Assembly: GCA_040830765.1 (NCBI GenBank)
Contig: JBFOMH010000011.1
Span: forward strand, 1-64,000
Length of the DNA: 64,000 bases
Direction: 5' to 3'
Source: Puniceicoccaceae bacterium
GTDB lineage: Bacteria; Verrucomicrobiota; Verrucomicrobiia; Opitutales; Oceanipulchritudinaceae
Position numbers and translations under genes: made by a program. Shown here one piece after another: positions 1-50,648 of this stretch. Below the pieces are notes generated by a model. That model searched no databases and was not told where the DNA came from. It saw only the letters and a program-made list of their open reading frames with translations. Position 1 is the first letter of the stretch. Each line of letters starts with the position of its first letter.

Positions 1-2071
1 ATTTCGGGGGGTCCGCGGCTCTCTGCTCGAAGTAGTCGGGGTAGTATATTTCCTGCCTGGAGCGGGCCCCGACCCAGTAGCTGACCTTGCGGGGAGTTTT
101 TTCGTTCTGGAAGGGGGGGGCAAGAGGGGCGGGCAGGGGAGCCATCCCGGCCCCACCGCCGATGTAAATCATTTCCCGCTGGGTGGGCTTGATATGGAAG
201 TCGCCGAAGGGACCAATGGCGGTCACGGTATCGCCCGCCTTGAGGTTGAAGACATAGCTTGATCCGACGCCCGGAGGACAATCCTGCCCCGGGGGCGGCG
301 TGGCGATGCGGACATTGAAGCGGAGAATGGTCTCCTTTTGCGAATTGCTGGCGAGGGAGTAGTTGTTGCGCCGATTCTCCTCCGTGTTGCTGGCGACCAG
401 ATCAAAGACATGCTGCCGCTCCCAGACCGTGGCGTAGGGCTCGGGAATATCGAACTCCCGGAAGCGGATCTGTTCGTAAGTCGGGATATCGAGCTGCATA
501 TAATCACCCGGTTGGAAATCGACGGCGTCTTCAGCGCTGGCCGGCTCGAGGACCAGTTCCTTGATGAAGGTGGAGACGCTGGTGTTGCTGACCACCTTGA
601 AGGTGTAGGTCTTCTCCTCGCGGGCACCGTCGCCACCAGCCTGGCTGATATTGAGCCAGATCCGACCGTTGCGCTCCTCGATGGGATATGTGACCAAACC
701 GCGGCAGATGGGTGCGCGGGCAGGGGAACCGTCAGTGAGGTTGAAGCGGCCATTGTGCTTTGGACACTCGACAATCCGTCCCTTGACCAGGCCATCGGCG
801 AGGTGGGTGTTGCCATGGGTGCAGAATCCGTCCGAGGCGTAGAGCTGTCCCTCGATATCCCGGTAGAGGGCATAGGTCTTGGACCCATGGTCGAAGCGGA
901 TGACATCCTCCGTGCCGAGGTCGGCCGCGGCACAGATTTCCATCCAGCCCTCCGTATCCGGACCTTTGTCCGAGCGGTAGGTGTCATCCTCCTGGGTCCG
1001 GCTGGGCTCGGGCAGCTTGCGTTTGACGTGCCATGCCGTCTCCTTCACCTGGCGCAGGATGGCGGGAATGATTTCCCGGTAGGCAACGATAAGATTCGGA
1101 TAGGGCTCCGGGCAATCGTCCTTGATGGCCTCGTGCAGCTCGCGTTGCTTGTGGTAGGGCACCAGCGGGAACATGTGGTGTTCCACGTGGTAGTTCATAT
1201 TCCAATACAAAAAGCGGTGAATCGGATTCATATAGACCGTGCGGCAGTTGAGCCGGTGGTCGAGGACGTTCTCCGCGAGGCCGGCGTGCTGGGTCAGTCC
1301 ATAAAGGACCATTAGCCAGCTGCCGAAGATGTTCGTCAGGCCGACATAGAACAGCGGCAGGACGCTGCCGGTGTAAATTGATAGCGCGATGACCGAGGCG
1401 TAGATGAATACATAGACCCGCGCGTTGCGGTAAATCTTCCCGAACTCCGTTTCTGGGATGAAGGTCTTTTCATCATCGGACATCTTGCCGAGGGAATGGC
1501 TGATGATGCCTTTGAAATACTTCGGATAGACGGTGAGGTTGAAGATGCCAAGGATGAGTGCCTTGATGTCCGGCGGGCGCGGCACGGCGATCTCCGGATC
1601 CCGCCCGACTATGATGGTGTCGCTGTGGTGACGCGTGTGGCTCCAGCGCCAGACGACCGATTCCCGCATGACCATGAAAGAGGCGATTTCGTAGAGGACA
1701 TTGTTCATCCAGTCGGTGCGGAAGGCCGTTCCGTGGCTGGACTCGTGCCAGCGGGAATCCGAGCTGCCGGCGTAGAGGGCGGCGTAGGCAAGGTAGGGGA
1801 GAATGGCCCACCAGGTACCCCAGAGCATGAAGGTGAGGTAGCCAAACCCAAAGATAAGCCCAAACCAGATGATGGTGTCGCGGATCGCCGGCCCGTTGTT
1901 GCGTTCCAGCAGTTTGCGCATGGTGGCGCGGGGGACCGGGCACTGGTACCAGTCGGCCTCCGCGAGGCCCTTTTCAATGGACTTGGTGGCGTTTTCCCCG
2001 GTCAGGCTGTAGTCGAGGTGCTTCGGCGGTTTGGTGAGGACGGCTGATGCGTGTTCAAGGTCGTCGAGCAT
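1..2071 (-). CDS. Fatty-acid-desaturase-type (MocD-like) di-iron oxygenase + Rieske (MocE-like) + NqrF-like FAD/NAD reductase fusion, copy 1; C-terminus runs off the window
   Basis: Not in the ORF track because it has no stop in the window. Translated by hand from ATG at 2071: MLDDLEHASAVLTKPPKHLDYSL...WHESSH; 53 of the first 60 aa are identical to 15709..18003. Rieske CTH...CPKH and GGGAGMAP motifs are visible. Confidence 0.9.
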   Translation of the reverse strand, partial: MLDDLEHASAVLTKPPKHLDYSLTGENATKSIEKGLAEADWYQCPVPRATMRKLLERNNGPAIRDTIIWFGLIFGFGYLTFMLWGTWWAILPYLAYAALYAGSSDSRWHESSHGTAFRTDWMNNVLYEIASFMVMRESVVWRWSHTRHHSDTIIVGRDPEIAVPRPPDIKALILGIFNLTVYPKYFKGIISHSLGKMSDDEKTFIPETEFGKIYRNARVYVFIYASVIALSIYTGSVLPLFYVGLTNIFGSWLMVLYGLTQHAGLAENVLDHRLNCRTVYMNPIHRFLYWNMNYHVEHHMFPLVPYHKQRELHEAIKDDCPEPYPNLIVAYREIIPAILRQVKETAWHVKRKLPEPSRTQEDDTYRSDKGPDTEGWMEICAAADLGTEDVIRFDHGSKTYALYRDIEGQLYASDGFCTHGNTHLADGLVKGRIVECPKHNGRFNLTDGSPARAPICRGLVTYPIEERNGRIWLNISQAGGDGAREEKTYTFKVVSNTSVSTFIKELVLEPASAEDAVDFQPGDYMQLDIPTYEQIRFREFDIPEPYATVWERQHVFDLVASNTEENRRNNYSLASNSQKETILRFNVRIATPPPGQDCPPGVGSSYVFNLKAGDTVTAIGPFGDFHIKPTQREMIYIGGGAGMAPLPAPLAPPFQNEKTPRKVSYWVGARSRQEIYYPDYFEQRAADPPK

Positions 2072-2101
2072 GATGGTTTCTCCTGTTAAGGTGGTAGTGA
2101 A

Positions 2102-3187
2102 TTATTCGTGACAGAAGGCAAATTTCGTGATGCGGCGCTGTGGATTCCCCGGGCGGACAATGATGTCCCCGAAGCCGGCTTGTGTCGTGGCGGCCGGATA
2201 ACCCTCGGTCTCAAGACAAAGCCCGGCGCAACGGGTGTAGGCGCGTTCCGACTTGCCGGTGAGGGACCCGTCAAAGTCCTTGCCGGTGTAGAACTGGAGG
2301 CAGGTCTCGGTGGTGCTGACTTCCATGACCTGGCCGGTTGGCGGGTGAAACAGGCGCGCCACGGGCCGCAGCTCCTCCGCTTCGCCTAACCAGTAGAGGT
2401 CGCCGTGCTCCTGCCATATGCCGGGAATTATGTCACCAACCCGCTTGCGGGTACTGAGGTCGCAGGGCTTGCCGGCGACGGGCTCCTTCCCGCCGAGCAG
2501 GGTCATCTCTTCATCGGCTGCGGCGACCGAGTCACTGAGTATGACCAGTTCATGGTCCTCGATCGATCCGGAACCCTCACCGGCGAGATTAAAGTAGGCA
2601 TGGTGGGTCAGGCTGACGGGAGTCGGCTCGCTGGCCGTCACCTCTGTCTCATAGAGAAAGGCATTGTCTTGAGTGACGGTATAGGTCACGGCGACGAGGA
2701 CTTCTCCCGGATAGCCTTCCTCCCCGGCCGGACTGGTGTAGCTCAGCCGTACCGACGGCGCGCCGTCCGCCCGCTCGACCCCCTCGGCCGACCAGAGCCG
2801 CTTGTCGAAGCCAATGGCCCCGCCATGGAGGTGGTTGGTCCCGTCGTTTTGCAGTAAATGATAAGGCTTCCCCTCAACCTCAATGATGCCGTCCGGGACT
2901 CGGCCAGCAATCCGGCCCACCGTCGCCCCGGCAAAAGGCTTGTTGTTGAGGTAGGCAGCAAGGTCGTTGAATCCCAGCACGACGTCGCGGCGCTCGCCGC
3001 CGCCGTCCGGAACGATCAGTCGGGAGACAATGCCGCCATAGGTCAGGACTTCCAGCTCCATGCCAGCGGCATTGCGCAGTGTCCAGGCCGTCACGTCGCG
3101 CCCATCCGGCATATCGCCGTAGGGGCGGGACGTTAAGGTGGGAGTGGTGTCCGGTGAGGGGGTAGGGGTCGATTCGGTGCTGCTCAT
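2102..3187 (-). CDS. galM: Aldose 1-epimerase (mutarotase)
   Basis: GATVGRIAGR, NHLHGG, THHAYFNL and GLCLETE motifs. Confidence 0.92.
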   Translation of the reverse strand: MSSTESTPTPSPDTTPTLTSRPYGDMPDGRDVTAWTLRNAAGMELEVLTYGGIVSRLIVPDGGGERRDVVLGFNDLAAYLNNKPFAGATVGRIAGRVPDGIIEVEGKPYHLLQNDGTNHLHGGAIGFDKRLWSAEGVERADGAPSVRLSYTSPAGEEGYPGEVLVAVTYTVTQDNAFLYETEVTASEPTPVSLTHHAYFNLAGEGSGSIEDHELVILSDSVAAADEEMTLLGGKEPVAGKPCDLSTRKRVGDIIPGIWQEHGDLYWLGEAEELRPVARLFHPPTGQVMEVSTTETCLQFYTGKDFDGSLTGKSERAYTRCAGLCLETEGYPAATTQAGFGDIIVRPGNPQRRITKFAFCHE

Positions 3188-3199
3188 CTATTATGTCAG

Positions 3200-3263
3200 G
3201 TTATAACAGATATCAGCAGTCCTTTCTTTTCGCCTGTTGTGGAATACCTCTCCTTTTTTGCAA
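3200..3263 (-). promoter_or_regulatory. Putative AraC-activated promoter of galM-oxygenase operon
   Basis: TATAAC on the minus strand at 3200-3205; the 40-bp block 3224-3263 matches 4614-4653 at 27/40 positions. Confidence 0.5.
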
Positions 3264-3281
3264 AGAGGCTTCGATAGGGAG

Positions 3282-4541
3282 CTATTTTCCCGCATTGAAG
3301 TCGCGCACTGTCTCGATCATGGCGACAACATTCTCGACCGGCGTAAGGGCCTGGACGTTGTGGATTGAATTGAAGACAAAGCCGCCTTGCTTGCCGAGGA
3401 CCTCGCAGCGCTCACGGACCTCCTTGCGGACTGCCTCGGGGGTGCCAAAGGGGAGGGTCTCCTGGGTGTTGACCCCGCCACCCCAGAAGGTGATGCGGTC
3501 CCCATACTTGGCCTTGATGGTGTTGGCATCCATGCCGGTGGCCTGGCACTGAACCGGATTGATGATATCGAATCCAGACTCAATGAGCGGATCGAGCAAT
3601 GGCTCGATGGCCCCGCAGCTGTGCTTGAAGGTCTTCCAAGTGGTGTTCTCGTGAATCCAGTCGTTTATCTTGAGGTAATAGCCCTTCCACACATCGAGGT
3701 AGGTGTCGACGGAGCAGAACTGGGAGGTCTGGGTGCCGAAATCGGTCCCGCAAATCACGACCACGTCAAGGAGCTCCCCGACAATGGAATGGAGCCGCTT
3801 CATGTTCTCGACCGCAATCTCGGTCTGGGCTTCAAAAATCTTTTTCACATGGTCAGGTTCCTCGGCCACCAGCATGTACCAGTCGGCGACCCCACGGACG
3901 CCCTTTGGATTCTTCAGGAAAGGGGCCGGCACGAGCGCGATGTCGCCCAGGCAGGTGCCGTTGAGGTGGGTCAGGATTGCCCGGTCGTTGCCCTTCATGG
4001 CTTCCGCCTCCTTGGTCCAGTAGGCGACATCCTCATCGGTCATGAGGCCGAATTCCTCAAGGTTGTCTTCCACGTGCAGGTCATCCTCATCGAAGTCCGG
4101 ATCGATGCGCTCGATGGTGTCGAAGAAGTAGCCTGTCTTCGGCAACTCTGCACTGGGCGGCGCTGTCCGGTCACCTTGAGGATAGATGACAATGGAACCA
4201 TTCGCTTTCTCGTTGGTATGAAAATGGGAAGAGACCAGAACCTCCTGTCCCCAGGGCGTCTGCCATGACTTCCAGTCCTCGTTGGGAAAGCCGAAAATGG
4301 TCTTGTAGGGAAAGATGCTGGTGGTGTCGATACCCATGGCCTCGCGGAGGTCATCCTCCACCATGCCCAGCATCTGGTAGGGCTCGGGGACTTTTACAGG
4401 CTTCTTCTCGAGACCGTAATAGTCCCGCAGTTGCTCCACCACACTGCAGTGGATGCCGGTGATGAAGGTGCTCCCGAAGTCAACCGGTATCGGGCCATCC
4501 TGATGATTGAGGGAATTGAGGACGCGTTCCTTGTGTGTCAT
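3282..4541 (-). CDS. UroD/MtaA-CmuA-fold protein (putative corrinoid methyltransferase), paralog 1
   Basis: MTHKERV N-terminus, GTDFGTQ, FKHSCG, NPVQ, FWGGGVNTQ..LP.GTPE, GGFVFNSIHNVQ. Confidence 0.8.
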   Translation of the reverse strand: MTHKERVLNSLNHQDGPIPVDFGSTFITGIHCSVVEQLRDYYGLEKKPVKVPEPYQMLGMVEDDLREAMGIDTTSIFPYKTIFGFPNEDWKSWQTPWGQEVLVSSHFHTNEKANGSIVIYPQGDRTAPPSAELPKTGYFFDTIERIDPDFDEDDLHVEDNLEEFGLMTDEDVAYWTKEAEAMKGNDRAILTHLNGTCLGDIALVPAPFLKNPKGVRGVADWYMLVAEEPDHVKKIFEAQTEIAVENMKRLHSIVGELLDVVVICGTDFGTQTSQFCSVDTYLDVWKGYYLKINDWIHENTTWKTFKHSCGAIEPLLDPLIESGFDIINPVQCQATGMDANTIKAKYGDRITFWGGGVNTQETLPFGTPEAVRKEVRERCEVLGKQGGFVFNSIHNVQALTPVENVVAMIETVRDFNAGK

Positions 4542-4588
4542 TTTGGGGTCCTTGGAATAGGTGATATTTAACAGTCGAGCTGCAGCGC

Positions 4589-4653
4589 ATTATAGCGGAT
4601 GGAGAAGCTTCAATTCTTCTTGCTCTCTCGGAAAAACCTTTCATTTTTTGCGA
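4589..4653 (-). promoter_or_regulatory. Putative AraC-activated promoter of UroD paralog 1, abutting the araC start
   Basis: Perfect TATAAT on the minus strand at 4589-4594, with the shared 40-bp block at near-identical spacing. Confidence 0.55.
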
Positions 4654-4654
4654 T

Positions 4655-5545
4655 ATGCTTGAGGATCTCAAGTTAGGCCCGGCTTACGATGGATTCCTCT
4701 TCCTTGCCGAGGCGCGGCACAACCCGCCCATCCTGCGGAGCCACCGGCATGTCGAGTTGGAGCTGAACCTAGTCACCCAGGGATCGGTGACCTATATCAT
4801 TTCCGGGAACCGCTACACCTTTTCGCGCGGGAGCATGCTGTGGATATTTCCCGCTCAGGAGCATCAGCTGGTCGACCGTACCCCGGACGCCCGTTATTAT
4901 GTCGGAGTCTTTAAGCCGGAATTGATCGAGCGGGCCTGTCACGGGGACCTCTACCAGGGGCTGAAGCAGGAGTGCGTCGAAGGGGAGGCGATCCTCAGCA
5001 AGATCCTGCTTCTGGAGCGCTATAATCTTGTTATTCAAGTCATGGATTCGCTCATGGAAGGGTCCCTTGACCCCGAACTCCTAAACCGGGAAGCGGGTTT
5101 TGGCTACCAGTCGGACTTCCGCTACGAGCATGGGGACCCGGATGCCCTAAATGCGGGATTGCATTACCTGCTGGTCCATTGCTGGAAGGTCTTTCAGTCG
5201 GAGGGAACGGGGGCCGATTCCGTCCAGCTGCACCCGGCCGTCGCCAAAGCCCTGATCCTGATCGGAGAAGATGACAATGCCACCGGATTGACCGCCCTGG
5301 CCGAGAAATGCGGCATCTCGGAGACCTACCTGAGCCGCCTGTTCAAGGAGCAGGTCGGGGTAGCGCTGAATCACTACCGCAACTCCGTCCGCCTACGCGC
5401 GTTCATGGAGCACTACCGCTCTCCTCCGAGAAAGACCATCCTGGAGTGCGTCTATGCCGCCGGATTCGGCAGCTACGCCCAGTTCTACAAGGTCTTTATG
5501 AAGTCCTATGGCTACGGGCCAAGGGAATACTTGAAAGGCGATTGA
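4655..5545 (+). CDS. AraC-family regulator (cupin + HTH)
   Basis: HRHVELELNLV cupin; YLSRLFK...AGFGSYAQFYKVF HTH. Confidence 0.9.
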   Translation: MLEDLKLGPAYDGFLFLAEARHNPPILRSHRHVELELNLVTQGSVTYIISGNRYTFSRGSMLWIFPAQEHQLVDRTPDARYYVGVFKPELIERACHGDLYQGLKQECVEGEAILSKILLLERYNLVIQVMDSLMEGSLDPELLNREAGFGYQSDFRYEHGDPDALNAGLHYLLVHCWKVFQSEGTGADSVQLHPAVAKALILIGEDDNATGLTALAEKCGISETYLSRLFKEQVGVALNHYRNSVRLRAFMEHYRSPPRKTILECVYAAGFGSYAQFYKVFMKSYGYGPREYLKGD

Positions 5546-5602
5546 TCCAGGGTCTGGGCTGGTTGGGCGAAGGCTTTCGAAAGCGCAGCCTCCGAAAAAG
5601 GA

Positions 5603-7243
5603 TCAATTGCAGAGGTTATTTTTTTCGAACCAGAGAATCTCCTCCAGGTATTTATCATAAAAGAGGGTGGCATCATGGTCCAGTGAATCACTAATCAGGC
5701 GGCATGGAACACCATGTTCCTGTAATTCCTGAAAGAGCTCCAAGGCAATCGGTTTCCGCTTCTCCCCGGTAAGGATCATCACAGCTGACCTTCCTTCCAA
5801 ATTCCGGGTCTTATTATCATATATTTCCAGCAATTCCGGAATTGTGTTTCCGCTCAGTGGATCCTGGGTTCCTGAAAGTTCCCCCGTTTGCCTGCTGGAC
5901 GGTTCGCTGGAGAAGTAATACCGGCTTCCATCAATCGCAACCGCGTAATTGAAGAGTTCCGGATATTTCAATACATACCTGACGGCCCCACCGGCACCCA
6001 TTGAGAAGCCAACAATTCCAACGCAATCCTTGGCCGTACGGTACTCTTGATTAATGTGCGGGACAAGCTCGGTGATGATGTGACTTTCGATAAATAGCTC
6101 GCCATTCGGATTATCGACATAGCCTTCATTCATCCCATTTGGGAAGACCATGATTACCTCCGGAAAGCTGCCTTTTTCGGTCTCTTGGAAGTAGTACCTG
6201 CTGTTCCAGAAGTCAGCGGTCTCGGATCCAGTGAGCCCGTGCAGGAAGTAAATTACGGGGAATCTTGTAGTTGAAGAGTCATCGTCAAAATACGTCTTGG
6301 GCAGAACAATTGAATACCCAATCCCCTTTTCGTGCAATCTGCTGTATAGAACGGTATGCCTGAATCCCCCCATTGAGGGAATAGGGTTTTGAACCGATGG
6401 ATAGGGCCTTCCCTGCCACGGTTTATTTACGAATGGCGGATCATATTGATTGGGTGTTTCGACTCCCGGGGCGGTCTTTTGCTGCCTCATCAGCCACTGC
6501 CAGAGCTCCGGATCGGCATAGGTTTCCGTCCAGGCATCGTGGCCGGCATCCGGATAGAGGGTGAAACGGACATTGCCGCCTTCGTTTTGCATTTCCTCCA
6601 CCATTTCAAGGGACTCAGAGGGCGGGATCACCGTATCGAGGGCACCATGGAAGACCCATGTCGGGATGCCGCCCAGCCAATCGGCGTAGGGAGCCGGAGC
6701 CGCCCCACTAATGGGGACCAAGGCGGCAAAGCGATCCGGGTTCTCAATGGCCAGGCACCAGGCTCCGAATCCCCCGCGGCTGAGGCCGGTGAGGTAGATC
6801 CGGTTTGTATCCACGCGATAACTATTCTCCAGATGGTCAAGAAGCCTGATGAGGGTATTGGTGTCCCAGTAGCCCTTCACTTTTGAATTTTGAGGGGATA
6901 CGACAATCATCGGAAACGCATGACCTTCCTCAATCATCCGGGGCGGGCCATGGGCCTTGACTTTTTCGATATCCGTTCCCGATTCCCCGCCTCCATGGAG
7001 AAACAGAAGTAAAGGATAAGGCTCTCTCGACTCCGCATATTTATCTGGAAGATAGAGCAGGTAATCCATCAGGAATCCGCCGCTGGTTATTGTATCCGAG
7101 ATTTCGATATCCTGGCCGTTGACGGAATCAAAGCGTTTGTGCTCCTGAAGGATTTCCTGTCCCGCTATCAATTGGGCATGAACGAAAAATGCCACCAGCA
7201 ACACTATGCTGGATCCATGGTTTCCTCGCGTGGTATACAACAT
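5603..7243 (-). CDS. Secreted tandem alpha/beta-hydrolase (carboxylesterase-like + CE1-like esterase)
   Basis: Hydrophobic N-terminus; domain 1 FLHGGGE/GLSRGG/FHGALD/GHDAW; domain 2 YFLHG/GFSMG/DH. Confidence 0.75.
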   Translation of the reverse strand: MLYTTRGNHGSSIVLLVAFFVHAQLIAGQEILQEHKRFDSVNGQDIEISDTITSGGFLMDYLLYLPDKYAESREPYPLLLFLHGGGESGTDIEKVKAHGPPRMIEEGHAFPMIVVSPQNSKVKGYWDTNTLIRLLDHLENSYRVDTNRIYLTGLSRGGFGAWCLAIENPDRFAALVPISGAAPAPYADWLGGIPTWVFHGALDTVIPPSESLEMVEEMQNEGGNVRFTLYPDAGHDAWTETYADPELWQWLMRQQKTAPGVETPNQYDPPFVNKPWQGRPYPSVQNPIPSMGGFRHTVLYSRLHEKGIGYSIVLPKTYFDDDSSTTRFPVIYFLHGLTGSETADFWNSRYYFQETEKGSFPEVIMVFPNGMNEGYVDNPNGELFIESHIITELVPHINQEYRTAKDCVGIVGFSMGAGGAVRYVLKYPELFNYAVAIDGSRYYFSSEPSSRQTGELSGTQDPLSGNTIPELLEIYDNKTRNLEGRSAVMILTGEKRKPIALELFQELQEHGVPCRLISDSLDHDATLFYDKYLEEILWFEKNNLCN

Positions 7244-7571
7244 TACCTTTAGTGATGGTGTTCTTCATCATTTCGTCAATCCACTAATAATCAGGAGCTT
7301 ACAAAATTCTGTTTTGCGTCGATTTTCTACACAGCGAGCGCGTCTTTGTTCATGTTTAGACCCGATTATTTTGCTTCCATGGGACTTGAACAATTCCGGT
7401 AAACCACCAATCCTGAAGGGGTTAAGTCAGACAGAATCGATTTTTTTCACATCTTCATCGTTATTATCAATAGGATTAATATGGGGACCTGGGATAAGGT
7501 ATCGGCGAACCTGCGGAAGACCCGCTCTACTTCAAAATCCCTCAATCATTCAGATTGCAACCAAGAGAAAT

Positions 7572-8492
7572 ATGAATGCAAACTCCTATATTGAATCCGC
7601 TGCCCTGAAGGCCCGCAATTTCGTTTGTGCGCTAATCGGTTGCGTACTTGTTGCTCCATGGACACTAACCGCCCAGGAAGCGACCAGTGAAGACGACACG
7701 GAAATATATGATCTGTCTCCATTCGTGGTAGACGCCTCTGACGATACACGTTACGCAGCGACCAACACCTTGGCGGCAACCCGTGTAAGGACCGACCTCA
7801 ATGACGTCGCCTCCTCGGTTTCCGTTTATACCAAAGACTTCCTTGAAGATGTTAATGCGACGGATGATGCCTCCCTGCTGCTCTATGCTACCAATGCAGA
7901 AGTTGGTGGAATCTCCGGCAACTTTGCTGGCGCCGGCAATGGTGGCCTTCTGGATGAAACGGCTGGTTTCCGGGCCATCTCAACAACAACTCGAGTCCGC
8001 GGCCTTGATGCCGCTGACAACACCCGCGATTACTTCCGCACCTTGATCCCTTGGGACGGATACAACGTCGATCGTGTGGACATGCAGAGAGGTCCGAATT
8101 CCGTCCTCTATGGCCTCGGCAAGCCGGCAGGCATCATCAACACCACCCTCAAGCAGCCACTTTTTGACGATTACTTTGAGATGGCCCTTCAGGTATCCAA
8201 CTGGGGAAGCGTCCGGGTAACCGGCGACTTCAACAAGGAGATTATTGATAATGAGTTGGCTGTCCGCTTCAATGTCCTTTCGGACTCCACCGAGTTTCGG
8301 CAGGATCCCGCCTACGAGGACGATGAGCGCTTCTATATCGCCGCCAAGTATCTTCCGGAGTTTCTCATCCCGGCCGGGTTTGCCCTCTTGACGGCAGGGA
8401 TCACCTGCTTTTACAAGATCGACCGCCGGATGGAGGAGCAACTGGCCGAAACGATGAAGGAGATGAAAAGGTCCGGGGAATCACTTAGGTAA
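7572..8492 (+). pseudogene. Truncated TonB-dependent receptor (signal peptide + plug + start of barrel) fused in frame to a transporter-like C-terminal tail
   Basis: LSPFVVDAS..YAATNTLAATR, RVRG, RVDMQRGPNSVLYG..GIIN plug motifs; only about 300 aa; ends IPAGFALLTAGITCFYKIDRRMEEQL. Confidence 0.75.
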
Positions 8493-8565
8493 TGCCATCC
8501 ACGGAAGGAGCGGAACGTGCGTCGAACCGGAAGCGGCTTCTATTTTGCCTCCGAGCTCCCGCTTT

Positions 8566-9708
8566 TCACTCCCCATTCAACCTTTTCTTCCGGTAGGCAC
8601 CCGGTGACAGGCCGGTGGCCTTACGGAAGGTGCGGCTGAGATGGCTCTGGTCGAAGAATCCGCACTCGAGGGCGATGGCGGACAAATTGTAACTGGTACT
8701 GACAATCAGGTGCTTGGCCCGGTTGATGCGGTACTGGTTGAGGAGCTCGGTGAAGCTACGACCCAGGCGTTCGGTCATGACCTTGCTGAAGTGACTGGGG
8801 GACATGCCGACATGGGTGGCCACATCATCCCGCTTGAGGGGTTCGTGGAGATGCTCCTCCATGTAGGTGAGGGCCTTGTTGAGGACAATGAAGTGCGGAT
8901 AGGCTTCGCTCTGATGGATTTGCTCAATAAGCGCTTCCAGCATATTGCGCAACCAGACCGCCAGATCCTCTTCGTCATCAATGGCGGAGAGGTCGGTAAT
9001 AAAGCGGTAGTTGTTGCCCAGGAGGAGAGAGGGGTCCGCCCCGGCCTCGACGGCCGCGCGGCTCATCATGACCACCAGTTCGAGGACGGAACTTTTGAGC
9101 AGTTCCATGTTCTCGTCGGCGATGGAATAGATGCTGGTCAGGATGCGGTTGAGTATGGAGCGGGCCTCCTGGGTGCGGCCCTCCTTGATGGCGGTCAGGA
9201 GGCCGGGTTCCTCCCGGAGGTAGGTGGTCCGCAACTCGTCCTTGGACCATGCTTCCTTGGAGGCTTCAATGACGAGGAAACGCTCCCGTTCCTTGAGGGC
9301 CTGCTCGTTTGCCACTTGCAGGGCGGCGGCATTGGTCAGGTTTTCCTGAATGGCGAGGCTGAATAGGCCTTGGGCGGCCTTGCGGACGCGGCGGGAAATG
9401 TCCGCCTCCCCGGATTCAAGGTCGATTCCCTGGACCACCAGGGCGCCCGTTAGCCGGGCATTTTGCATGAGTGGCACCGCCCACTGGCCAAATCCGTTTT
9501 CACAGCAAAGCCCGATGATCGGCTCCCCGAAGGAGAGGGTCTGGCGGGCGGCCTCAATCCGCTTGGCGTTGGATGCGCACCTGCAGGAACAATCGGTCCG
9601 GGGCGTATCGCCAAAAACCACCATTCCCGATTCGTCACAGACCAGAAAGCTGAAGCCAAATTCGGTTTTGTAGCGAGCGAGCAATTTACTGTAACACTCC
9701 GGTGTCAT
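8566..9708 (-). CDS. PocR-ligand-binding-domain AraC regulator
   Basis: N-terminal C..(A..A)..GEP....C..G....AVPL...G PocR-like pattern; C-terminal AraC HTH (GFFDQSHLSRTF). Start could instead be 9756. Confidence 0.8.
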   Translation of the reverse strand: MTPECYSKLLARYKTEFGFSFLVCDESGMVVFGDTPRTDCSCRCASNAKRIEAARQTLSFGEPIIGLCCENGFGQWAVPLMQNARLTGALVVQGIDLESGEADISRRVRKAAQGLFSLAIQENLTNAAALQVANEQALKERERFLVIEASKEAWSKDELRTTYLREEPGLLTAIKEGRTQEARSILNRILTSIYSIADENMELLKSSVLELVVMMSRAAVEAGADPSLLLGNNYRFITDLSAIDDEEDLAVWLRNMLEALIEQIHQSEAYPHFIVLNKALTYMEEHLHEPLKRDDVATHVGMSPSHFSKVMTERLGRSFTELLNQYRINRAKHLIVSTSYNLSAIALECGFFDQSHLSRTFRKATGLSPGAYRKKRLNGE

Positions 9709-10882: not shown

Positions 10883-10898
10883 CTTGTTTGCAAGGTCC

Positions 10899-12782: not shown

Positions 12783-12786
12783 GGCG

Positions 12787-45410: not shown

Positions 45411-45547
45411 CGGAACTGATTGAATTAGAGTACCTTAGATTTTCCTTCAAGCGTGTTTTTGGTCGGCCTGTATGCGGCTATTGACGATGGGGACGACCCT
45501 TGACCCCTTCAGATCTACCTTTCACCATGGTACCCAGCCAACCTCAT

Positions 45548-46957
45548 ATGATGAAAAAGTCTCTCCTGATCCACCCGGCCTTACTTGCCTCCATTGCTGG
45601 ATTCGCGGCCCCGCCGCCCAACATTGTCATCATATTCAATGATGATCAGGGGTATCAGGATTTGGGCTGTTACGGCTCGCCCGACATCAAGACCCCACGG
45701 GTTGATCAACTGGCGCAGGAGGGCATGCGTTTTACTGACTTCCTGGTGGCCTCGCCGGTCTGCTCGCCTTCGCGAGCGTCCCTGCTGACTGGTTTGTATC
45801 CCCACAAAGCGGGTGTGAGGGGAGTCTTTTTTCCCAACCGGGGCTATCATGGATTGGCTCCGAGTCAGGTGACGATTGCGGAAACCCTGCGTGATGTGGG
45901 TTACGCAACAGCCGCAGTCGGCAAGTGGCACCTTGGTGATCATGTGGACTTCCTGCCAACCAACCAGGGCTTTGATAGTTATTTTGGCATCCCCTACAGC
46001 AACGACATGTATCCGGCCCAGGACATGCGGTATGCCGCTGACTGCATCTATCTGGAAGGGGAGACACCCGAGACGATTCGGCAATCCTTTGAGGAGGAAT
46101 TGAGGAGAGGCAATCCCGTGGCCATGCGAGACAAGGTTCCCTTGATGCGGGATGAGGAGTGCATCGAGTTCCCGGCAGACCAACGGACCATTACCCGCCG
46201 CTACGCCGACGCAGGTATTCGCTTCATTCGGGATAGCGTGGATTCCGGCAAGCCATTCTTCCTCTACCTGGCCAATACCATGCCCCATGTCCCGCTTTTT
46301 TCGTCCGAGCCATTCACCGGCAATAGCGAGCGAGGACCCTATGGGGATGTCATCGAGGAAATTGATTTTTATACGGGAAGAATCCTCGATTGTCTGGAGG
46401 CGCTGGGTATCGAGGAAAACACGATTGTCATCTTCACGTCGGACAATGGCCCCTGGCTGACCAAGGGCGAGGAGGGTGGCTCCGCTGATCCGCTTTTTGA
46501 AGGCAAGTTCTCAGGCTTTGAAGGCGGTCATCGGGTCCCTTGTATCATTCGTTGGCCGGGCAAGATCCCGGCTGGAAGTGTTTGTGCCGAAATAACCTCT
46601 ACAATCGATTTTCACCCGACCCTGGCGGGTCTGGCAGGTGCGGAGCTCCCCGCAATTGAGCTGGATGGCAAGGATGTGCTCGACCTGTGGCTGGCCAAAG
46701 AAGGAGCAGAATCCCCGCACGAGTACTTTTTCTATGTGCACCGGGGGCAAGCGGTCCGTTCGGGCGACTGGAAGTACCACTTGAAGGAAGTGTTTCCCGT
46801 CAAGGCAACCGCCCGCGAGTACACAGGTCCATCATTGTACAACCTTCGCGACGACATCGGGGAGGCGAACAATGTGATAACTGAGTATCCAGAGGTCGCG
46901 GAGCGCCTTTCAGCTCAACTGGACGCCTTCCTCAGTGACTGGGCCAAGGAGGAATAA
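45548..46957 (+). CDS. Secreted Cys-type sulfatase
   Basis: PNIVIIFNDDQG, CSPSRASLLTG, GKWHLG, PYSNDM, FTSDNGPW. Confidence 0.92.
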   Translation: MMKKSLLIHPALLASIAGFAAPPPNIVIIFNDDQGYQDLGCYGSPDIKTPRVDQLAQEGMRFTDFLVASPVCSPSRASLLTGLYPHKAGVRGVFFPNRGYHGLAPSQVTIAETLRDVGYATAAVGKWHLGDHVDFLPTNQGFDSYFGIPYSNDMYPAQDMRYAADCIYLEGETPETIRQSFEEELRRGNPVAMRDKVPLMRDEECIEFPADQRTITRRYADAGIRFIRDSVDSGKPFFLYLANTMPHVPLFSSEPFTGNSERGPYGDVIEEIDFYTGRILDCLEALGIEENTIVIFTSDNGPWLTKGEEGGSADPLFEGKFSGFEGGHRVPCIIRWPGKIPAGSVCAEITSTIDFHPTLAGLAGAELPAIELDGKDVLDLWLAKEGAESPHEYFFYVHRGQAVRSGDWKYHLKEVFPVKATAREYTGPSLYNLRDDIGEANNVITEYPEVAERLSAQLDAFLSDWAKEE

Positions 46958-46984: not shown

Positions 46985-48334
46985 TCAATCCTCATTAAGG
47001 CGGTTGTAGGAGACAGTGGCGCGGATGTCCGTCTGGACGTGGCGCTCGACGATCGGCTTGCGGGAGCCGCCATCCTCTTCGCCCCAGACAACCTTAACTT
47101 CGGAACCGTCGGGAACCTCCTCATCCAGCATGGCCAGGGAGAACCAGGACCGGACATTGGCGGTGTAAACGGTGTAGGTTGAGAGACCCACCATGCGGTC
47201 GCCGACAAGCACCTTGTCGAACGGCAGGATGGAGTAATAGGCGTTCGGTACTTCCATGTACTTGTAACGCTCACCTTCGCCCAGCTGACTGGCGAAGACC
47301 TTCATCACATCCTCGTCGTTCCCCTTCAGCCAGAGTTTCCGGCGGTGGGGCTGGTCGACCATCTTTTCCAGTGCCTCGCGGCCAATGAAATCGTGATCGA
47401 ACTTGATGTGCTTGCCGTAGCCGAGATCCCACGGGGTCTGGTAGTAGTCCTCAATGTTGTCGGCATAGAAACTGCCCCCAAGGGAGGCATTGGCCTCGAA
47501 ACCGTTGGCCGGGAGCCATTCGCGGTAGGCCTTCATCTTGTCCCCGGCATAGATGGCCGGCATCGGAGAGGGGATCCAGCCGCTTTCGGGGGAGACAGTC
47601 GAATAGGCACGGCTGCCTCCCATGACCAATCCAAATTCCGGCCCCTTCTTGAGGATTGCCTCAAGCACGACATCTCGGTCCTCGACGGGGCCATGGAGCT
47701 CAAGTCCACCCATTCTGGACATGTTGTGGTTGAGGGCACGCACTTTCTTGCCGGCGATCGTGAGGTCACCGAGATTGAAGAACTTGATTTCCGGGAATTC
47801 CCCTTCGTGGACGCTCTTGATGAGGTCGAGGGCGTTCGGTCCCTGAATCTGGTACCGGTAGATGAGGCGGGAACCGTCATTGCTGACCGTGCGCTGGTCG
47901 CGCGTCACCTTGACATCGTAATTTCCGGTCTCGGCATGGAAATTGACCCAGTTGGGGACGGAGGGACGTCCAACCACGCTGACCTTGTCATCCGTGTGGC
48001 CAAAGAGAATGGCATCGCCGATGACATAGCCATCGTAATTACAGGCGACAATCTGCTTGGCCTTGTTGGCGGCAAAGTTCTTCAAGGTATTGACCCCGAC
48101 GTCGGAAAGCAGGCGGCGTACGTCCGGCCCCTCAAAGTAGATGTCGGTCATGTGAAAGGACTGGTCAAAGAGGACGACGCTGTTCTGCCACGCCTGTTGT
48201 TCCTCGCGCCAGTTGGTGTATTCGCCCGGGAAAGGGAACTGGTAGCCGCCTACCTGTGCATGGCGGAGCATCTCGACGGGGCTGGGGTATTGCTGAAGCT
48301 TGGCTTCAAGACTGGTGGGTTGTTCTGTACTCAT
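46985..48334 (-). CDS. THF-dependent O-demethylase (LigM/DesA-like, GcvT fold)
   Basis: NWREEQ.AW....LFDQS.HM, GYVIGD.IL, GSRAY...ESGWIPSP.PAIY, LGGSF, TPWDLGYG. Confidence 0.85.
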   Translation of the reverse strand: MSTEQPTSLEAKLQQYPSPVEMLRHAQVGGYQFPFPGEYTNWREEQQAWQNSVVLFDQSFHMTDIYFEGPDVRRLLSDVGVNTLKNFAANKAKQIVACNYDGYVIGDAILFGHTDDKVSVVGRPSVPNWVNFHAETGNYDVKVTRDQRTVSNDGSRLIYRYQIQGPNALDLIKSVHEGEFPEIKFFNLGDLTIAGKKVRALNHNMSRMGGLELHGPVEDRDVVLEAILKKGPEFGLVMGGSRAYSTVSPESGWIPSPMPAIYAGDKMKAYREWLPANGFEANASLGGSFYADNIEDYYQTPWDLGYGKHIKFDHDFIGREALEKMVDQPHRRKLWLKGNDEDVMKVFASQLGEGERYKYMEVPNAYYSILPFDKVLVGDRMVGLSTYTVYTANVRSWFSLAMLDEEVPDGSEVKVVWGEEDGGSRKPIVERHVQTDIRATVSYNRLNED

Positions 48335-48385: not shown

Positions 48386-49666
48386 TTACACGGCCATGGG
48401 ATTGAACTGGACGCCGCTCCGTGCCCGGGCCTCCTTGGCGCGGTCACGAATCTGGCGCAGGAATTCGTCGATAAGGGAGGGCGGCATCCCGAAGTTCATG
48501 ACATGTACGCCAGCAGCGCCAACCTCGATGACTCCCTCAGCGATGCCGAAGGCCCAATCAAGGGCAGCCCGCTGGAAGTCTTCCTGTTCCATGATGGCGT
48601 GCAGGGACGGATCCACGTAGACCCCGGGCAAGCGGCAGAGTACCTTGAAGAGCTTCTGGCTTCCAACCAGGGGCAGTGAAGGAATGGTCAGCTTGGGGGC
48701 GTCCTCCCGTCCGGACCGGACCTGCTTGTACCATTCGGCAAAGGTCGGGACGTGGGTAATGGCCTGGGTCTGGCAGAAACGGGCCCCCGCGTGACGCTTG
48801 AAGGCCAGCCGGTCGACGCTGACATTCATCGGCGTGGAAAATGGATTGGCCGCGCAGCCGAAGAAGGGGACAATCCCAAGGCGGCTCTTCCAGTCTTCCA
48901 GTTCTTGGTTGGCGAAGTGGATCATCTGTGAGCTGTCCATGGGAAACCAAGTCTGCTGGGCCACCTTGCGCTCCTTGTCCGGGAGCCAGTCGCCGGTCAG
49001 CAGGAGGAAATTCCTGTAGCCCATGTCCATCGCCTTTTCGACCTCGCGGAGGAAGTCCTCCCGGTCGTGGTCGCGTCCGCAAAACTGGATAATCGATTCC
49101 ACCCCATGGGCCATCACGACCTTGCCGGTCTCCGTAGAATGGAGCGACGGTACTCCTCCGGCATTGGTTGTGGTATTGACTGCATCGACCTGGTCATGGG
49201 TCCGGGCCATGATCTTCTCAACCCGCCAAAGACCGTCCTTGTTCAAGGGTGAGGCGATTTCCAAGGTGACAACAAACTCCCCCCGGCCCATTTTTTGGGC
49301 AAGTTGGGAACTGGCGGCAATATGGGTCGTGTCAATGAATTCGTGGGGGAGGCGGGTTTCCCGATCCTTGCCGTTGACGAAATTCACATAGCTGGCCGTA
49401 TTGAGCAGCTCCTCCTTGGGCGGGAGGTGGATTTTCTGCGGCTTCTTCTGGTCTTTCTTTATCTCAATGTTCGTCCAGACGCAGTCCAGTTCCGGCAGGA
49501 CTTCGCATTTGCCGTCGAGGGTCCCGCCACAGGGTCCGTTTCGCAGTCCCTTGGGACAATTCATCGGACAGATCAACTTGGTATGAGTAAGGATGCACTG
49601 GCCGCATGTCTGGCAGCCAAACATCTTTTCCTTCATCCATTTTTCTGCCTGGAAGATGACGCTCAT
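48386..49666 (-). CDS. metF: Methylene-THF reductase: MetV-like Cys-rich domain fused to MetF-like domain
   Basis: CQTCGQC..CPMNCPKGLRNGPCGG..CEV..CVW; then E..SP, RD, LTGD, AANP, QTQ. Confidence 0.75.
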   Translation of the reverse strand: MSVIFQAEKWMKEKMFGCQTCGQCILTHTKLICPMNCPKGLRNGPCGGTLDGKCEVLPELDCVWTNIEIKKDQKKPQKIHLPPKEELLNTASYVNFVNGKDRETRLPHEFIDTTHIAASSQLAQKMGRGEFVVTLEIASPLNKDGLWRVEKIMARTHDQVDAVNTTTNAGGVPSLHSTETGKVVMAHGVESIIQFCGRDHDREDFLREVEKAMDMGYRNFLLLTGDWLPDKERKVAQQTWFPMDSSQMIHFANQELEDWKSRLGIVPFFGCAANPFSTPMNVSVDRLAFKRHAGARFCQTQAITHVPTFAEWYKQVRSGREDAPKLTIPSLPLVGSQKLFKVLCRLPGVYVDPSLHAIMEQEDFQRAALDWAFGIAEGVIEVGAAGVHVMNFGMPPSLIDEFLRQIRDRAKEARARSGVQFNPMAV

Positions 49667-49714
49667 AGGGACCTGATTGGGCAGGGAAGTGTTTCCTGCC
49701 GGTCGGGAATGGTC

Positions 49715-49776
49715 ATTATAGCAGATTTAGCGGCTTTATCTTGGATTATCCGGATTTGTTTGATTGTATTATCCGG
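49715..49776 (-). promoter_or_regulatory. Putative AraC-dependent promoter of metVF-demethylase
   Basis: TATAAT on the minus strand at 49715-49720; direct repeat TTG(G/T)ATTATCCGG at 49741 and 49764. Confidence 0.6.
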
Positions 49777-49778
49777 CA

Positions 49779-50648
49779 ATGGATAATTTGAATCAAGCAT
49801 TCAGGCGCCGCAAGGCCCCTGCCCGGATTGAAGTTCCGGAAGGGCAGGTCCGTGTCCTCGAAAGCCATCATGATGTCGATTTCCAGATGCCTGTCAGTAC
49901 TTGGTCATTCCACAAGATATGCTGGGTGGCGGTTGGTAAGGGAGAGCTGGAGTCGGAAGAGGGCAGGTACTCCCTGCGGGCGGATGATATTCTTCTCCTG
50001 CCGGCAGATTGGCCCCACCGGTTTGTGGATGATCCAAGGGAGCCACTGACGCTGGTGATTCTTTGCATTTCCGGGAAATTCATGGAAGCCACCGATGGTG
50101 GTGGGAAGCCATCGCTGTGGGAATCGATTCGCGAATCCACAGCTCCCGGAAAGCCTTTAAGGGCCCGGACCGCTTTTCACCGCAGCAATTTAATCGAGAT
50201 GTTCCGACTGGCCCTGCAGGAGCAGGGGAGGCAGCGCAGGGGTTGGGAGACCATCCTTGAGACAATCGCCAGTCGGGTTCTGGTCAGCTTCGCCCGTGGG
50301 CACCTGGAGGAAGGAGAAGTCGATGGAAATTCGAGCCTGCGCTCTGTGGAAGGGGCCATCGAGTACATTGATACCCATGTCCACGAGCGGCTGACAATCG
50401 AGGAAATGGCCAGCCGCAGCAATTTATCTCCCCGACGCTTCACGACCCTCTTCAAACAGCTGACAGGAGAGACCTTCAGTAACTATTTGAACCAGAAGCG
50501 GATTGAGTACGCCTGCCAACGGCTCGATGAGACCGGCCACATTCTTTATGCCTGTCACGGATCCGGCTTTAACGACGTGGCCTATTTTTATCGCGTATTC
50601 AAGAAATTCACCGGGATGACGCCGGGTGAGTACCTTAAAAAAGCTTAG
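49779..50648 (+). CDS. AraC-family regulator
   Basis: Cupin N-terminus; RFTTLFK...GFNDVAYFYRVFKK..G.TP. Confidence 0.9.
   Translation: MDNLNQAFRRRKAPARIEVPEGQVRVLESHHDVDFQMPVSTWSFHKICWVAVGKGELESEEGRYSLRADDILLLPADWPHRFVDDPREPLTLVILCISGKFMEATDGGGKPSLWESIRESTAPGKPLRARTAFHRSNLIEMFRLALQEQGRQRRGWETILETIASRVLVSFARGHLEEGEVDGNSSLRSVEGAIEYIDTHVHERLTIEEMASRSNLSPRRFTTLFKQLTGETFSNYLNQKRIEYACQRLDETGHILYACHGSGFNDVAYFYRVFKKFTGMTPGEYLKKA

Follow-up and report, generated by a model that had tools for sequence, protein, structure and literature searches.

Candidate methyl-sugar demethylation cassettes beside an ulvan-type polysaccharide locus in a Puniceicoccaceae genome

Which enzymes free methylated sugars of their methyl groups, and do three dissimilar sets of demethylase-like genes lying close together on one bacterial contig all serve that purpose? 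Methylated sugars, common in algal, plant, microbial and mollusc glycans, block ordinary sugar catabolism, and the sole characterised bacterial route for them is the P450 route for 6-O-methyl-galactose. The window analysed here, by which we mean the whole stretch of DNA, comprises bases 1-64000 of contig JBFOMH010000011.1 (C11) from a Puniceicoccaceae bacterium whose genome measures 3.99 Mb in 40 contigs and is 96.9% complete. Pfam and NCBIfam profile scans of its 44 long open reading frames (ORFs) confirmed all of the gene content listed in a preliminary description of the window: two fused desaturase-Rieske-reductase oxygenases (Fus1 and Fus2), four proteins of the URO-D/MtaA fold (UroD_A to UroD_D), a DUF1638 protein, the activase RACo, a LigM-like demethylase with a MetV-MetF reductase, galM, uxaE, an SSS transporter, sulfatases, rhamnosidases and a PL25 ulvan lyase. 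That description took the demethylation genes to be built into an algal-polysaccharide locus. The reading we favour, to which we give about an even chance, is narrower: the left 19 kb would contain two self-contained, monosaccharide-level demethylation cassettes for imported methyl-hexoses, beside an ulvan-type locus, and the LigM cassette would be independent of both. The substrates and reactions named below we infer from gene content, motifs, gene neighbourhoods and folds.

The genes at the centre of the question are these:

2-2071, minus strand: Fus1, with FA_desaturase, Rieske and FAD_binding_6(/NAD_binding_1) domains; a MocD-like membrane di-iron oxygenase, a MocE-like Rieske protein and an NqrF-like flavin reductase in one
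2102-3187, minus strand: GalM-like aldose 1-epimerase (PF01263, 216 bits; galM_Leloir, 231 bits, below its cut-off of 397)
3282-4541, minus strand: UroD_A, 419-residue URO-D/MtaA-fold protein (PF01208, 53 bits), candidate methyl-sugar:corrinoid methyltransferase
4655-5545, plus strand: AraC1, AraC-family regulator divergent from the UroD_A-GalM-Fus1 operon, with 113 bases between it and UroD_A
8566-9756, minus strand: AraC2, regulator that in relatives heads an MtaC-MtaB-(CobW)-DUF1638-RACo operon
9812-10882, plus strand: UroD_B, URO-D/MtaA-fold protein with an H-S-C motif
10899-11990, minus strand: UroD_C, URO-D/MtaA-fold protein with H-S-D instead of H-x-C and a Cys aligned with the third MtaA zinc ligand
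12054-12782, plus strand: DUF1638 protein (PF07796, 134.8 bits), single copy in the genome
12787-14367, plus strand: RACo/RamA-type ATP-dependent reductive activase of corrinoid proteins (RACo_C_ter PF14574, 209.8 bits; Raco_middle PF17651, 129.8 bits), single copy in the genome
15709-18003, minus strand: Fus2, complete MocD-MocE-reductase fusion of 764 residues with FA_desaturase, Rieske and FAD_binding_6(/NAD_binding_1) domains
18111-19217, plus strand: UroD_D, URO-D/MtaA-fold protein with H-T-D, divergent from Fus2

Fus1 is the last gene of the UroD_A-GalM-Fus1 operon, and its C-terminus is cut by the contig end, the window starting at base 1 of C11. It matches Fus2 at 576 of 685 positions (84%), and a 97%-identical copy in a Puniceicoccaceae metagenome-assembled genome (MAG) extends to 748 residues; both assemblies break inside the Fus1 gene, probably because of the 84%-identical paralogue. 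The last ~45 residues of Fus1 (window 2-140) show many His/Met/Tyr-to-Pro/Leu/Val changes relative to that copy, which are probably base errors typical of a contig end. All eight desaturase histidines are kept in Fus1 and Fus2 (HESSH 109, HTRHH 145, HVEHH 295), as are the Rieske C-x-H...C-x-x-H and the NAD motif GGAGMAP. The desaturase domain scores 125 bits on PF00487, and the Rieske domain 116 bits on the MocE family model TIGR02377, below its cut-off of 136.15.

Residues 1-474 of Fus2 show ~52% identity over ~95% of their length to rhizobial gene pairs annotated as fatty acid desaturase family protein and MocE family 2Fe-2S ferredoxin; in tblastn, 273 of the 372 matching plasmid records cover at least 80% of this query. 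The rhizobial pairs are followed by an FAD oxidoreductase gene and then a PanB-like gene, under a LacI regulator, so that Fus2 appears to be a single-chain version of MocD, MocE and their reductase. To our knowledge there is no biochemical demonstration of MocDEF activity. The accessible part of PMC10107442 places mocDEF in rhizopine catabolism, under a rhizopine-inducible promoter, and gives the demethylase role as a proposal of 1998 (Bahar 1998, as cited there). The window enzymes share with the MocD/MocE/MocF 'ferredoxin oxygenase' from the catabolism of rhizopine (3-O-methyl-scyllo-inosamine) in Sinorhizobium and Rhizobium a membrane di-iron protein with three His boxes, a flavin reductase and a sugar-type regulator, and they have a MocE-like Rieske domain. 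They differ in having all three parts in one 764-residue chain, in an NqrF-like reductase where rhizobia have a separate FAD-dependent oxidoreductase, in a regulator of AraC type rather than LacI or MocR, in the sub-threshold Rieske score, and in neighbours that are GalM and a URO-D protein, plus a TIM barrel in the fusion loci of relatives, instead of inositol genes. On two plasmids of Rhizobium and Sinorhizobium (L179, L180) the PanB-like protein behind the MocD/MocE-like pair and FAD oxidoreductase is annotated as 3-methyl-2-oxobutanoate hydroxymethyltransferase; it could be a partner that handles formaldehyde or methylene-tetrahydrofolate.

How widely the fusion occurs, and in what company, was surveyed in a phylum sample of 401 genomes, used also for the UroD_A, MtaB and LigM-like counts below. 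Counting only matches that cover nearly the whole query (the remainder are NqrF-like reductases), full-length fusions occur in 26 of the 401 genomes. Among 30 loci fetched around the fusion, an AraC1 homologue stands beside it in nine and another AraC-family regulator in six; nine have a GalM homologue beside it, four a URO-D protein, and ten a divergent xylose-isomerase-like TIM barrel of ~300 residues, lacking a Pfam match, directly downstream. Sulfatases are near the fusion in five loci and glycoside hydrolases or lyases in three; a UxaE-like homologue occurs in none of the 30. The conserved unit around the fusion is a monosaccharide-level cassette, not a polysaccharide locus.

The TIM-barrel family looks like a xylose-isomerase type from its motifs, 'ETHR.T.TQD' and 'DFSH', and has no Pfam or NCBIfam match. 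Copies lie at L036:9967-10860, L056:11167-12021 and eight more sites. Two occur in the window genome itself: one at C19:32275-33129 with an SSF transporter and a beta-hydroxyacid dehydrogenase, the other at C34:27452-28300 with a URO-D paralogue. The window genome (G000) also encodes a third MocD-like desaturase, which stands alone (C26:81195-82262) and is 30% identical to Fus2. Genes for an Amidohydro_2 protein, a zinc alcohol dehydrogenase and a 2-hydroxyacid dehydrogenase belong to the same run, and no adjoining Rieske gene was noticed.

The partner of Fus1 in its operon, UroD_A, belongs to a fold associated with corrinoid methyl transfer. Its structural model (pLDDT 93) has MtaA as the best Foldseek match (4AY7_A, E 2.7e-11, TMt 0.68), followed by uroporphyrinogen decarboxylases and MetE, and contains an extra beta-rich insert at about residues 73-135. 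By sequence it shows only weak UroD matches among solved structures, and in the protein atlas it falls into clusters named 'Methyltransferase' and 'URO-D family' only. The zinc motif of MtaA is H-x-C ... C. H307, C309 and H394 of UroD_A are unchanged in all 30 orthologous sequences compared; at the third ligand position only UroD_C has Cys, and UroD_A, UroD_B and UroD_D have His. Orthologues of UroD_A form a tight clade (100/100) and those of UroD_C a separate one (100/99), with UroD_B sister to the UroD_C clade. The genome yields ten URO-D matches: one HemE-like protein (355 bits), the four in the window and five elsewhere, making nine non-HemE paralogues. Four of the five outside the window adjoin GH38, pectate-lyase-like or TonB-receptor genes, and the GH38-linked paralogue on contig C18 fits methyl-mannose.

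A search in which each species was represented by a single genome gave 141 relatives of UroD_A. The best 80 loci, at 43-95% identity, span at least ten phyla; carriers include Verrucomicrobiota, Planctomycetota, Bacteroidota, Spirochaetota, Acidobacteriota, Calditrichota, Lentisphaeria, Kiritimatiellia, Clostridia and others, the nearest named relatives being a Puniceicoccaceae MAG (95% identity) and Oceanipulchritudo MAGs (79-81%). Within 9 kb of UroD_A in these 80 loci, tblastn placed MtaC-like proteins in 18, DUF1638 in 13, RACo and AraC1 in 12 each, the fusion in nine, a UroD_C-like protein in eight, GalM in four and MtaB in three. UroD_C orthologues (56-63% identity) adjoin MtaC, UroD_A or the fusion in L098, L052 and L107. 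A domain scan of 45 loci, mostly non-Verrucomicrobial, which took at most two flanking ORFs per side and covered 100 of 269 candidate ORFs, found a sugar gene among the scanned neighbours in 25 of the 45. The transporters are MFS Sugar_tr proteins, Peripla_BP_4 or other ABC-type systems, and RhaT; five loci have a GH29 or fucosidase-like protein, and other neighbours are GH120-like, GH2, GH31, GH127, GH130, GH63-like, melibiase, DUF4185 and pectate-lyase-like beta-helix proteins, as well as a hexokinase or ROK protein. In Acidobacteria the gene order is URO-D, UroD_A, MtaC, homocysteine S-methyltransferase, DUF1638, URO-D, with RACo next in two loci, which points to homocysteine as one possible methyl acceptor. 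The fused oxygenase and the URO-D/DUF1638/RACo set are each tied to monosaccharide genes well beyond the window genome, which supports this part of the preliminary description. The linkage to sugar genes in this survey (25 of 45 UroD_A loci; GalM at nine of 30 fusion loci) stands; the adjacency to ulvan genes is not conserved. No ulvan enzymes lie beside the cassettes in the close relatives L099, L100 and L103, nor in most of the 30 fusion loci, so the view that they are 'built into' an algal locus is not supported.

What joins the two chemistries is a common operon and a common regulator. A divergent AraC1 heads UroD_A, GalM and the fusion in L099, L136 and L142; L141 begins in the same way, and its fetched stretch ends after GalM. 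In L101, L103, L106 and L055 AraC1 heads UroD_A and the fusion. Oxygenase and UroD_A are encoded in one AraC1-headed operon in eight genomes, the window genome and seven relatives. In a FastTree phylogeny of 21 AraC1 homologues with the window's AraC1 and AraC2-4, read for topology only and without support values, all AraC1 homologues form one clade, in which regulators found beside the fusion only (8), beside UroD_A only (5) and beside both (8) interleave. Because one type of regulator controls either route or both, the two chemistries would seem to address one methyl-sugar. Removal of an O-methyl group is the sole chemistry common to a MocDEF-type oxygenase and a corrinoid methyltransferase, and this, together with GalM and the sugar transporters, is why methyl-sugar demethylation is our proposed function.

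A corrinoid methyltransferase requires a carrier, and here the window holds half of a system. The preliminary description had a corrinoid branch in the window; its URO-D, DUF1638 and RACo genes are there, and the carrier is missing. The single stand-alone corrinoid protein of the genome, MtaC, with an invariant D-x-H-x-x-G motif, is encoded on contig C21 beside an MtaB homologue (PF12176, 567 bits; MtaB model, 435 bits) and CobW; genes for GH2, GH38 and a GHL6 protein surround them. An MtaB gene is present in 26 of the 401 genomes. At 20 MtaB loci, two of them re-fetches (G098 and G288), where neighbours were sought by tblastn with window proteins, it adjoins MtaC in 14, AraC2 in 13, RACo in nine, CobW in eight and DUF1638 in six. 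In G231, of the same family, AraC2-MtaC-MtaB-DUF1638-RACo is contiguous; in the window, UroD_B and UroD_C occupy the place of MtaC-MtaB. Since the operon is contiguous in relatives, and since this genome has a single DUF1638 protein, a single RACo and a single carrier, the window appears to hold the regulator and repair half of an MtaB/MtaC system; on these gene comparisons the DUF1638/RACo pair is assigned to a system split between C11 and C21. In G098 and G288 the MtaB/MtaC operon is combined with the fusion and with either UroD_A or UroD_C; in G288 a homologue of the window's SSS transporter (39% identity) also adjoins the fusion.

RACo scores 286 bits on the AcsV model, below the cut-off of 800. 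In DUF1638 the residues C13, H41, C74, D95 and C96 are invariant across 16 sequences, which suggests a metal or redox site. No solved relative was found by sequence, and the model (pLDDT 90) had no Foldseek match at E <= 0.001; the best VIA score, Z 7.0 (rmsd 2.8 over 94 residues), to aspartate racemase and periplasmic-binding-protein-like two-lobe folds, is inside the noise range of that tool. In the accessible parts of two reports, DUF1638 and a RamA-like activase are genetically linked to B12 reactivation in the aerobe Phaeobacter (PMC5764234) and are more abundant in Ruegeria on methylated compounds (PMC12478193). Corrinoid methyltransferases with RamA and DUF1638 work in these aerobic roseobacters, so the corrinoid system need not be anoxic: the corrinoid-type genes of the route once described as anoxic are present, and an anoxic mode of working does not follow from them. 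The split MetH and MtgABC glycine-betaine systems of marine roseobacters resemble the present one in that, by the accessible text of the same two reports, DUF1638 and RamA/RACo serve a stand-alone corrinoid protein in bacteria living in oxygen, and in the homocysteine S-methyltransferase of the Acidobacterial UroD_A loci. They differ from it in that this genome has a full-length MetH of 1251 residues and no stand-alone homocysteine or pterin module, and in that its loading enzymes would be of the URO-D fold, not the MttB fold.

Set beside MtaABC of methanogens and acetogens and the four-component aryl O-demethylases of acetogens and Desulfitobacterium (MT I, CP, MT II, AE), the genome shares URO-D/MtaA-fold methyltransferases, an MtaC-type carrier, an MtaB homologue, a RACo/RamA-type activase and a multitude of substrate-linked paralogues. 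The context here, in contrast, is sugar uptake and glycosidases, not growth on aromatics or C1 compounds; there is no pterin-binding MT II, and carrier and MtaB are on another contig; DUF1638 and CobW are extra components, and the URO-D scores lie far below the MtaA/CmuA cut-off. The Opitutales host, moreover, encodes an O2-dependent enzyme in the same operon. As side observations, a stand-alone homocysteine S-methyltransferase occurs in MtaB/MtaC or UroD_A/MtaC clusters at L085, L088 and L084 (f27 and other Verrucomicrobiota) and at L147 and L157 (Acidobacteria), and some of the clusters that have it also carry B12-uptake genes; this hints that methyl derived from methanol or ethers feeds methionine synthesis there.

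These parts suggest the following mechanism. In the oxygenase route, NAD(P)H would supply electrons, by way of the flavin domain and then the Rieske cluster, to the membrane di-iron centre of Fus1 or Fus2, which would hydroxylate the O-methyl carbon; the hemiacetal would then break down to free sugar and formaldehyde. In the corrinoid route, UroD_A would act as a zinc-site MtaA-fold methyltransferase that passes the methyl group to Co(I) on the MtaC-type protein from C21, with RACo and DUF1638 returning oxidised Co(II) to Co(I). Candidates for the final methyl acceptor are tetrahydrofolate, homocysteine, or water through MtaB in reverse. UroD_B, UroD_C and UroD_D probably serve other sugars or the unloading step, and GalM would equilibrate the freed aldose. 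Tentatively, as a possible but doubtful refinement, the AraC1 operon may combine an O2- and NAD(P)H-dependent oxygenase with a B12-dependent URO-D methyltransferase for the same methyl-hexose, an isofunctional pair like MetE and MetH, the methyl group in the latter route being kept by way of MtaC for homocysteine or tetrahydrofolate, or released as methanol by reverse MtaB. Such a pair might act on 3-O-methyl-galactose or 3-O-methyl-mannose derived from the glycans of algae or molluscs.

Should the proposed functions hold, degraders of polysaccharides in at least ten phyla would have two additional demethylation routes, one of them independent of oxygen and linking the breakdown of sugars to B12 and C1 metabolism. 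On the doubtful refinement just given, sugar methyl ethers would moreover count as a C1 source that has so far gone unrecognised, and the URO-D paralogues found in glycan loci across many phyla as a methyl-sugar demethylase family. Handles for testing are the 419-residue UroD_A family, the carrier MtaC, the regulator AraC1 and cultured carriers such as Pelagicoccus mobilis KCTC 13126, in which a divergent AraC1 precedes the gene order MtaC-UroD_A-URO-D-CobW-URO-D-DUF1638-RACo.

The third set of genes, which borders the ulvan-type locus on its other side, consists of the following:

46985-48334, minus strand: LigM/DesA-family tetrahydrofolate-dependent O-demethylase, a GCV_T protein (DesA model, 582.6 bits, cut-off 800; LigM model, 536.4 bits, cut-off 580)
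48386-49666, minus strand: MetV-MetF type methylenetetrahydrofolate reductase (MTHFR; DUF5981 PF12225 and MTHFR PF02219)
49764-50648, plus strand: AraC4, regulator of the LigM-MetVF cassette

Scoring below both cut-offs, the LigM-like protein is to be classed by its profile scores as a family member and not an equivalog. It aligns with solved LigM over residues 3-442 of 449 (5X1I, E 5.6e-135; 5TL4 likewise, ~1e-135), and its 'SRAY' tyrosine aligns with the 'SRAY' of the 5X1I chain, which we take to be Tyr247 of LigM (from our own residue count and the title of Kohler 2017). The gene is present in six of the 401 genomes, five of which also carry the fusion. Around it in the five other genomes, mostly of one order and so not independent, an AraC4-like regulator occurs in four, MTHFR with DUF5981 in three, PurU in three and GcvP in two, and no carbohydrate-active enzyme (CAZyme) is found among the scanned neighbours in any of the five; a URO-D gene lies 5 kb off in one and a weak sulfatase-like match 8 kb off in another. 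Pairing of tetrahydrofolate-dependent demethylases with a dedicated MTHFR is described in the accessible part of PMC11868366. The near-full-length 5X1I match and the pairing with MTHFR recall LigM/DesA with MetF in the ligM-metF-ligH operon of Sphingobium lignivorans SYK-6. Here, by contrast, the MTHFR is of the MetV-MetF type, the scores lie below both equivalog cut-offs, the genome yielded no known ring-cleavage enzyme for protocatechuate or gallate, and relatives pair the cassette with PurU and GcvP.

Because of this context in relatives, the kinship with LigM and the pairing with MTHFR, the LigM-like set would be a third, independent cassette for aryl methyl ethers and C1 metabolism, passing methyl groups to tetrahydrofolate and bordering the ulvan-type locus by chance; by sequence kinship its substrates are most likely methoxylated aromatic acids. 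That all three systems, this one included, demethylate methylated algal sugars within the polysaccharide locus, as the preliminary description proposed, is in our estimate highly improbable. In its favour are the physical closeness of the three, the fusion in five of the six genomes bearing a LigM-like gene (though these genomes are mostly from that one order), and the failure to find LigB-type or intradiol ring-cleavage dioxygenases in this 96.9% complete genome, which weakens the case for a full aromatic pathway and so tells against our own assignment. It must contend with the close full-length LigM match and its aligned catalytic tyrosine, with the AraC4-MTHFR-LigM arrangement that is accompanied in relatives by PurU and GcvP rather than CAZymes, and with the chemical argument that, when a methyl group is to go directly to tetrahydrofolate, alkoxides leave far less readily than phenolates.

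Several further observations weigh against the two sugar cassettes themselves. Both routes are known here from genes alone, and MocDEF itself is a sequence-based proposal. The four window URO-D proteins score 36.5-51.7 bits on the MtaA/CmuA model TIGR01463, with a cut-off of 235.4, and H-x-C is kept only in UroD_A and UroD_B. In 20 of the 45 scanned UroD_A loci no sugar gene is among the scanned neighbours, and many fusion loci are small islands amid housekeeping genes. Fusion and UroD_A occur together in 12 of the 401 genomes (singly in 26 and 45), UroD_A and MtaB together in 11 (singly in 45 and 26); related genomes are not independent, and these overlaps, given with no statistical test, overstate the association. 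UroD_A and the fusion are adjacent or clustered in only three of those 12 sampled genomes, and the fusion lies within 9 kb of UroD_A in only nine of the best 80 loci. Profile scans found no corrinoid-binding protein in the window, and the genome has no stand-alone pterin-binding or homocysteine methyltransferase, PF00809 occurring only inside the 1251-residue MetH frame on C18. A cobalamin riboswitch is absent at the Rfam gathering score from the window, 20 fusion loci and 13 further loci (one tRNA only was found), so nothing supports B12-dependent switching. Finally, MtaB is by family a methanol enzyme, and the corrinoid module could serve methanol rather than ethers.

That last point can be developed into an explanation of its own. 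MtaB and MtaC with RACo, DUF1638, CobW and AraC2 would capture methanol, for example from methyl-esterified uronic acids, and the URO-D paralogues would, in the manner of MtaA, unload methyl-MtaC onto tetrahydrofolate, a thiol or homocysteine. The C21 protein does score high on PF12176 and on the MtaB model, most of the 20 MtaB loci have the core operon without a URO-D gene detectable by window queries, f27 genomes and the Acidobacterial clusters hold the stand-alone homocysteine S-methyltransferase, the H-x-C of UroD_A and UroD_B is the thiol-activating zinc motif of MtaA, and an esterase gene is present in the window. Even so we judge methanol capture unlikely. UroD_A adjoins MtaC in 18 of the best 80 loci and MtaB in only three, and mostly works, therefore, without MtaB; nine diverged URO-D paralogues in different glycan loci resemble substrate-specific loading enzymes more than one unloader; in many phyla UroD_A immediately follows ABC or MFS transporter genes for monosaccharides; and it shares operon and regulator with an oxygenase whose sole proposed chemistry is O-demethylation. 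The same shared operon bears on the view that the fused oxygenase is no demethylase at all and instead hydroxylates or desaturates, say, the C6 methyl of a rhamnose-type 6-deoxy sugar, an inositol or sugar-acid carbon, or a lipid, in which case proximity to URO-D genes would mean no more than successive steps or shared regulation. The fold family (AlkB, XylM, desaturases) hydroxylates unactivated methyl groups, rhamnosidases are plentiful in the window, the fusion is often accompanied by xylose-isomerase-like TIM barrels, GFO_IDH_MocA oxidoreductases, aldo-keto reductases and beta-hydroxyacid dehydrogenases, and for every member of the fused-oxygenase family the function is a prediction from sequence. 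We nevertheless hold this to be improbable, as the closest annotated relatives are the MocD and MocE pairs with their proposed O-demethylation role, O-methyl removal is the only chemistry in common with the corrinoid methyltransferase family of the same operon, one regulator clade serves both modules, and GalM implies a free aldose product, not a lipid.

The methyl-sugar cassettes proposed here would also depart from the characterised P450 route. The P450 6-O-methyl-D-galactose demethylase of Zobellia and Formosa, active in porphyran use, resembles the oxygenase route in the proposed oxidative demethylation to sugar and formaldehyde, and literature on demethylation of 6-O-methyl-D-galactose concerns the P450 route (PMC6292453, PMC10033563 and PMC9400963, in the parts accessible). 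The fusion, however, is an unrelated catalyst, with membrane di-iron instead of haem-thiolate. The system had been called P450-independent: profile scans found no P450 in the window, and one P450, the genome's only one, is encoded elsewhere (G000 C27:32619-33851). That gene lies between genes for a GFO_IDH_MocA oxidoreductase, a 104-residue ORF and a PfkB sugar kinase, near oligogalacturonate-lyase-like genes; its identification as a known sugar demethylase was rejected, as no carbohydrate-active P450 was among its 60 best solved matches. Literature searches, with most subscription journals outside their coverage, found nothing on corrinoid demethylation of methylated sugars, on desaturase-Rieske enzymes for methyl sugars in Verrucomicrobi, or linking uroporphyrinogen decarboxylase-type corrinoid methyltransferases to polysaccharide utilization; by title or abstract opening, none of the literature on DUF1638 concerned sugars, and none of that on MtaB or methanol in Verrucomicrobi the present system. 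New here are the AraC1 clade common to both routes, the C11/C21 split of the corrinoid system, the cross-phylum census of UroD_A neighbours and the separation of the LigM cassette from the sugar systems.

The remaining features of the window include the ulvan-type locus:

5603-7243, minus strand: tandem alpha/beta-hydrolase esterase, PHB-depolymerase/feruloyl-esterase-like
14406-15677, plus strand: UxaE-like protein (tagaturonate epimerase family; PF16257, 181.8 bits), 38 bases downstream of RACo
19301-25403, plus strand: GNAT acetyltransferase, SSS sodium:solute symporter, sulfatase and DUF5060-domain protein
20212-22050, plus strand: the SSS sodium:solute symporter of that run
21980-23464, 39448-40872 and 45500-46957: three sulfatases
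25439-46957: ulvan-type polysaccharide locus, comprising GH88+DUF4861, GH78, GH106, PL25, VOC protein, GH78, sulfatase, AraC3, GH5, DUF6090, BNR protein and sulfatase
25439-27445: GH88+DUF4861
27607-30420 and 36583-39447: two GH78
30701-33940: GH106
33950-35575: BNR_4 protein, PL25 ulvan lyase (5UAM match, E 1.8e-197, query residues 102-538)

The stretch from 25 to 47 kb is called ulvan-type because of PL25 together with GH88, the two GH78, GH106 and the three sulfatases. UroD_D is the first gene of the plus-strand run that leads to it (GNAT, SSS, sulfatase, DUF5060 protein), and four AraC-family regulators are interspersed among the window's cassettes. The VOC protein at 35615-36544 was considered as an extradiol dioxygenase and rejected, as it matched no solved dioxygenase.

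Window DNA is present in sequencing runs labelled 'mollusc metagenome'. With window 1-20000 divided into 30 bins, contigs from RNA libraries cover 29 (X2), 20 (X3) and 15 (X4), the first two carrying that label, and 36 of 37, 20 of 21 and 21 of 21 contigs, respectively, are at least 99% alike to the window; this hints only weakly at transcription of the region, as RNA libraries may contain DNA, and the contigs cannot rank genes.

Four other ORFs of the window have unusual architectures. A 428-residue ORF (7206-8492, plus strand) has a TonB-dependent receptor plug domain without a beta-barrel and may be a truncated receptor. Adjoining the LigM cassette, a 1277-residue protein (50742-54575, minus strand) combines a CbiX/ferrochelatase-like region (residues ~178-405) with FG-GAP repeats, which is unusual for a chelatase. 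Another fusion (57424-58971, minus strand) combines a glutamate-synthase-like FMN domain with two CDGSH iron-sulfur zinc-finger motifs, and a GH16 protein at 61864-63783 (plus strand) bears an N-terminal ubiquitin-like domain (PF00240, 40.4 bits; Rad60-SLD, 30.5 bits).

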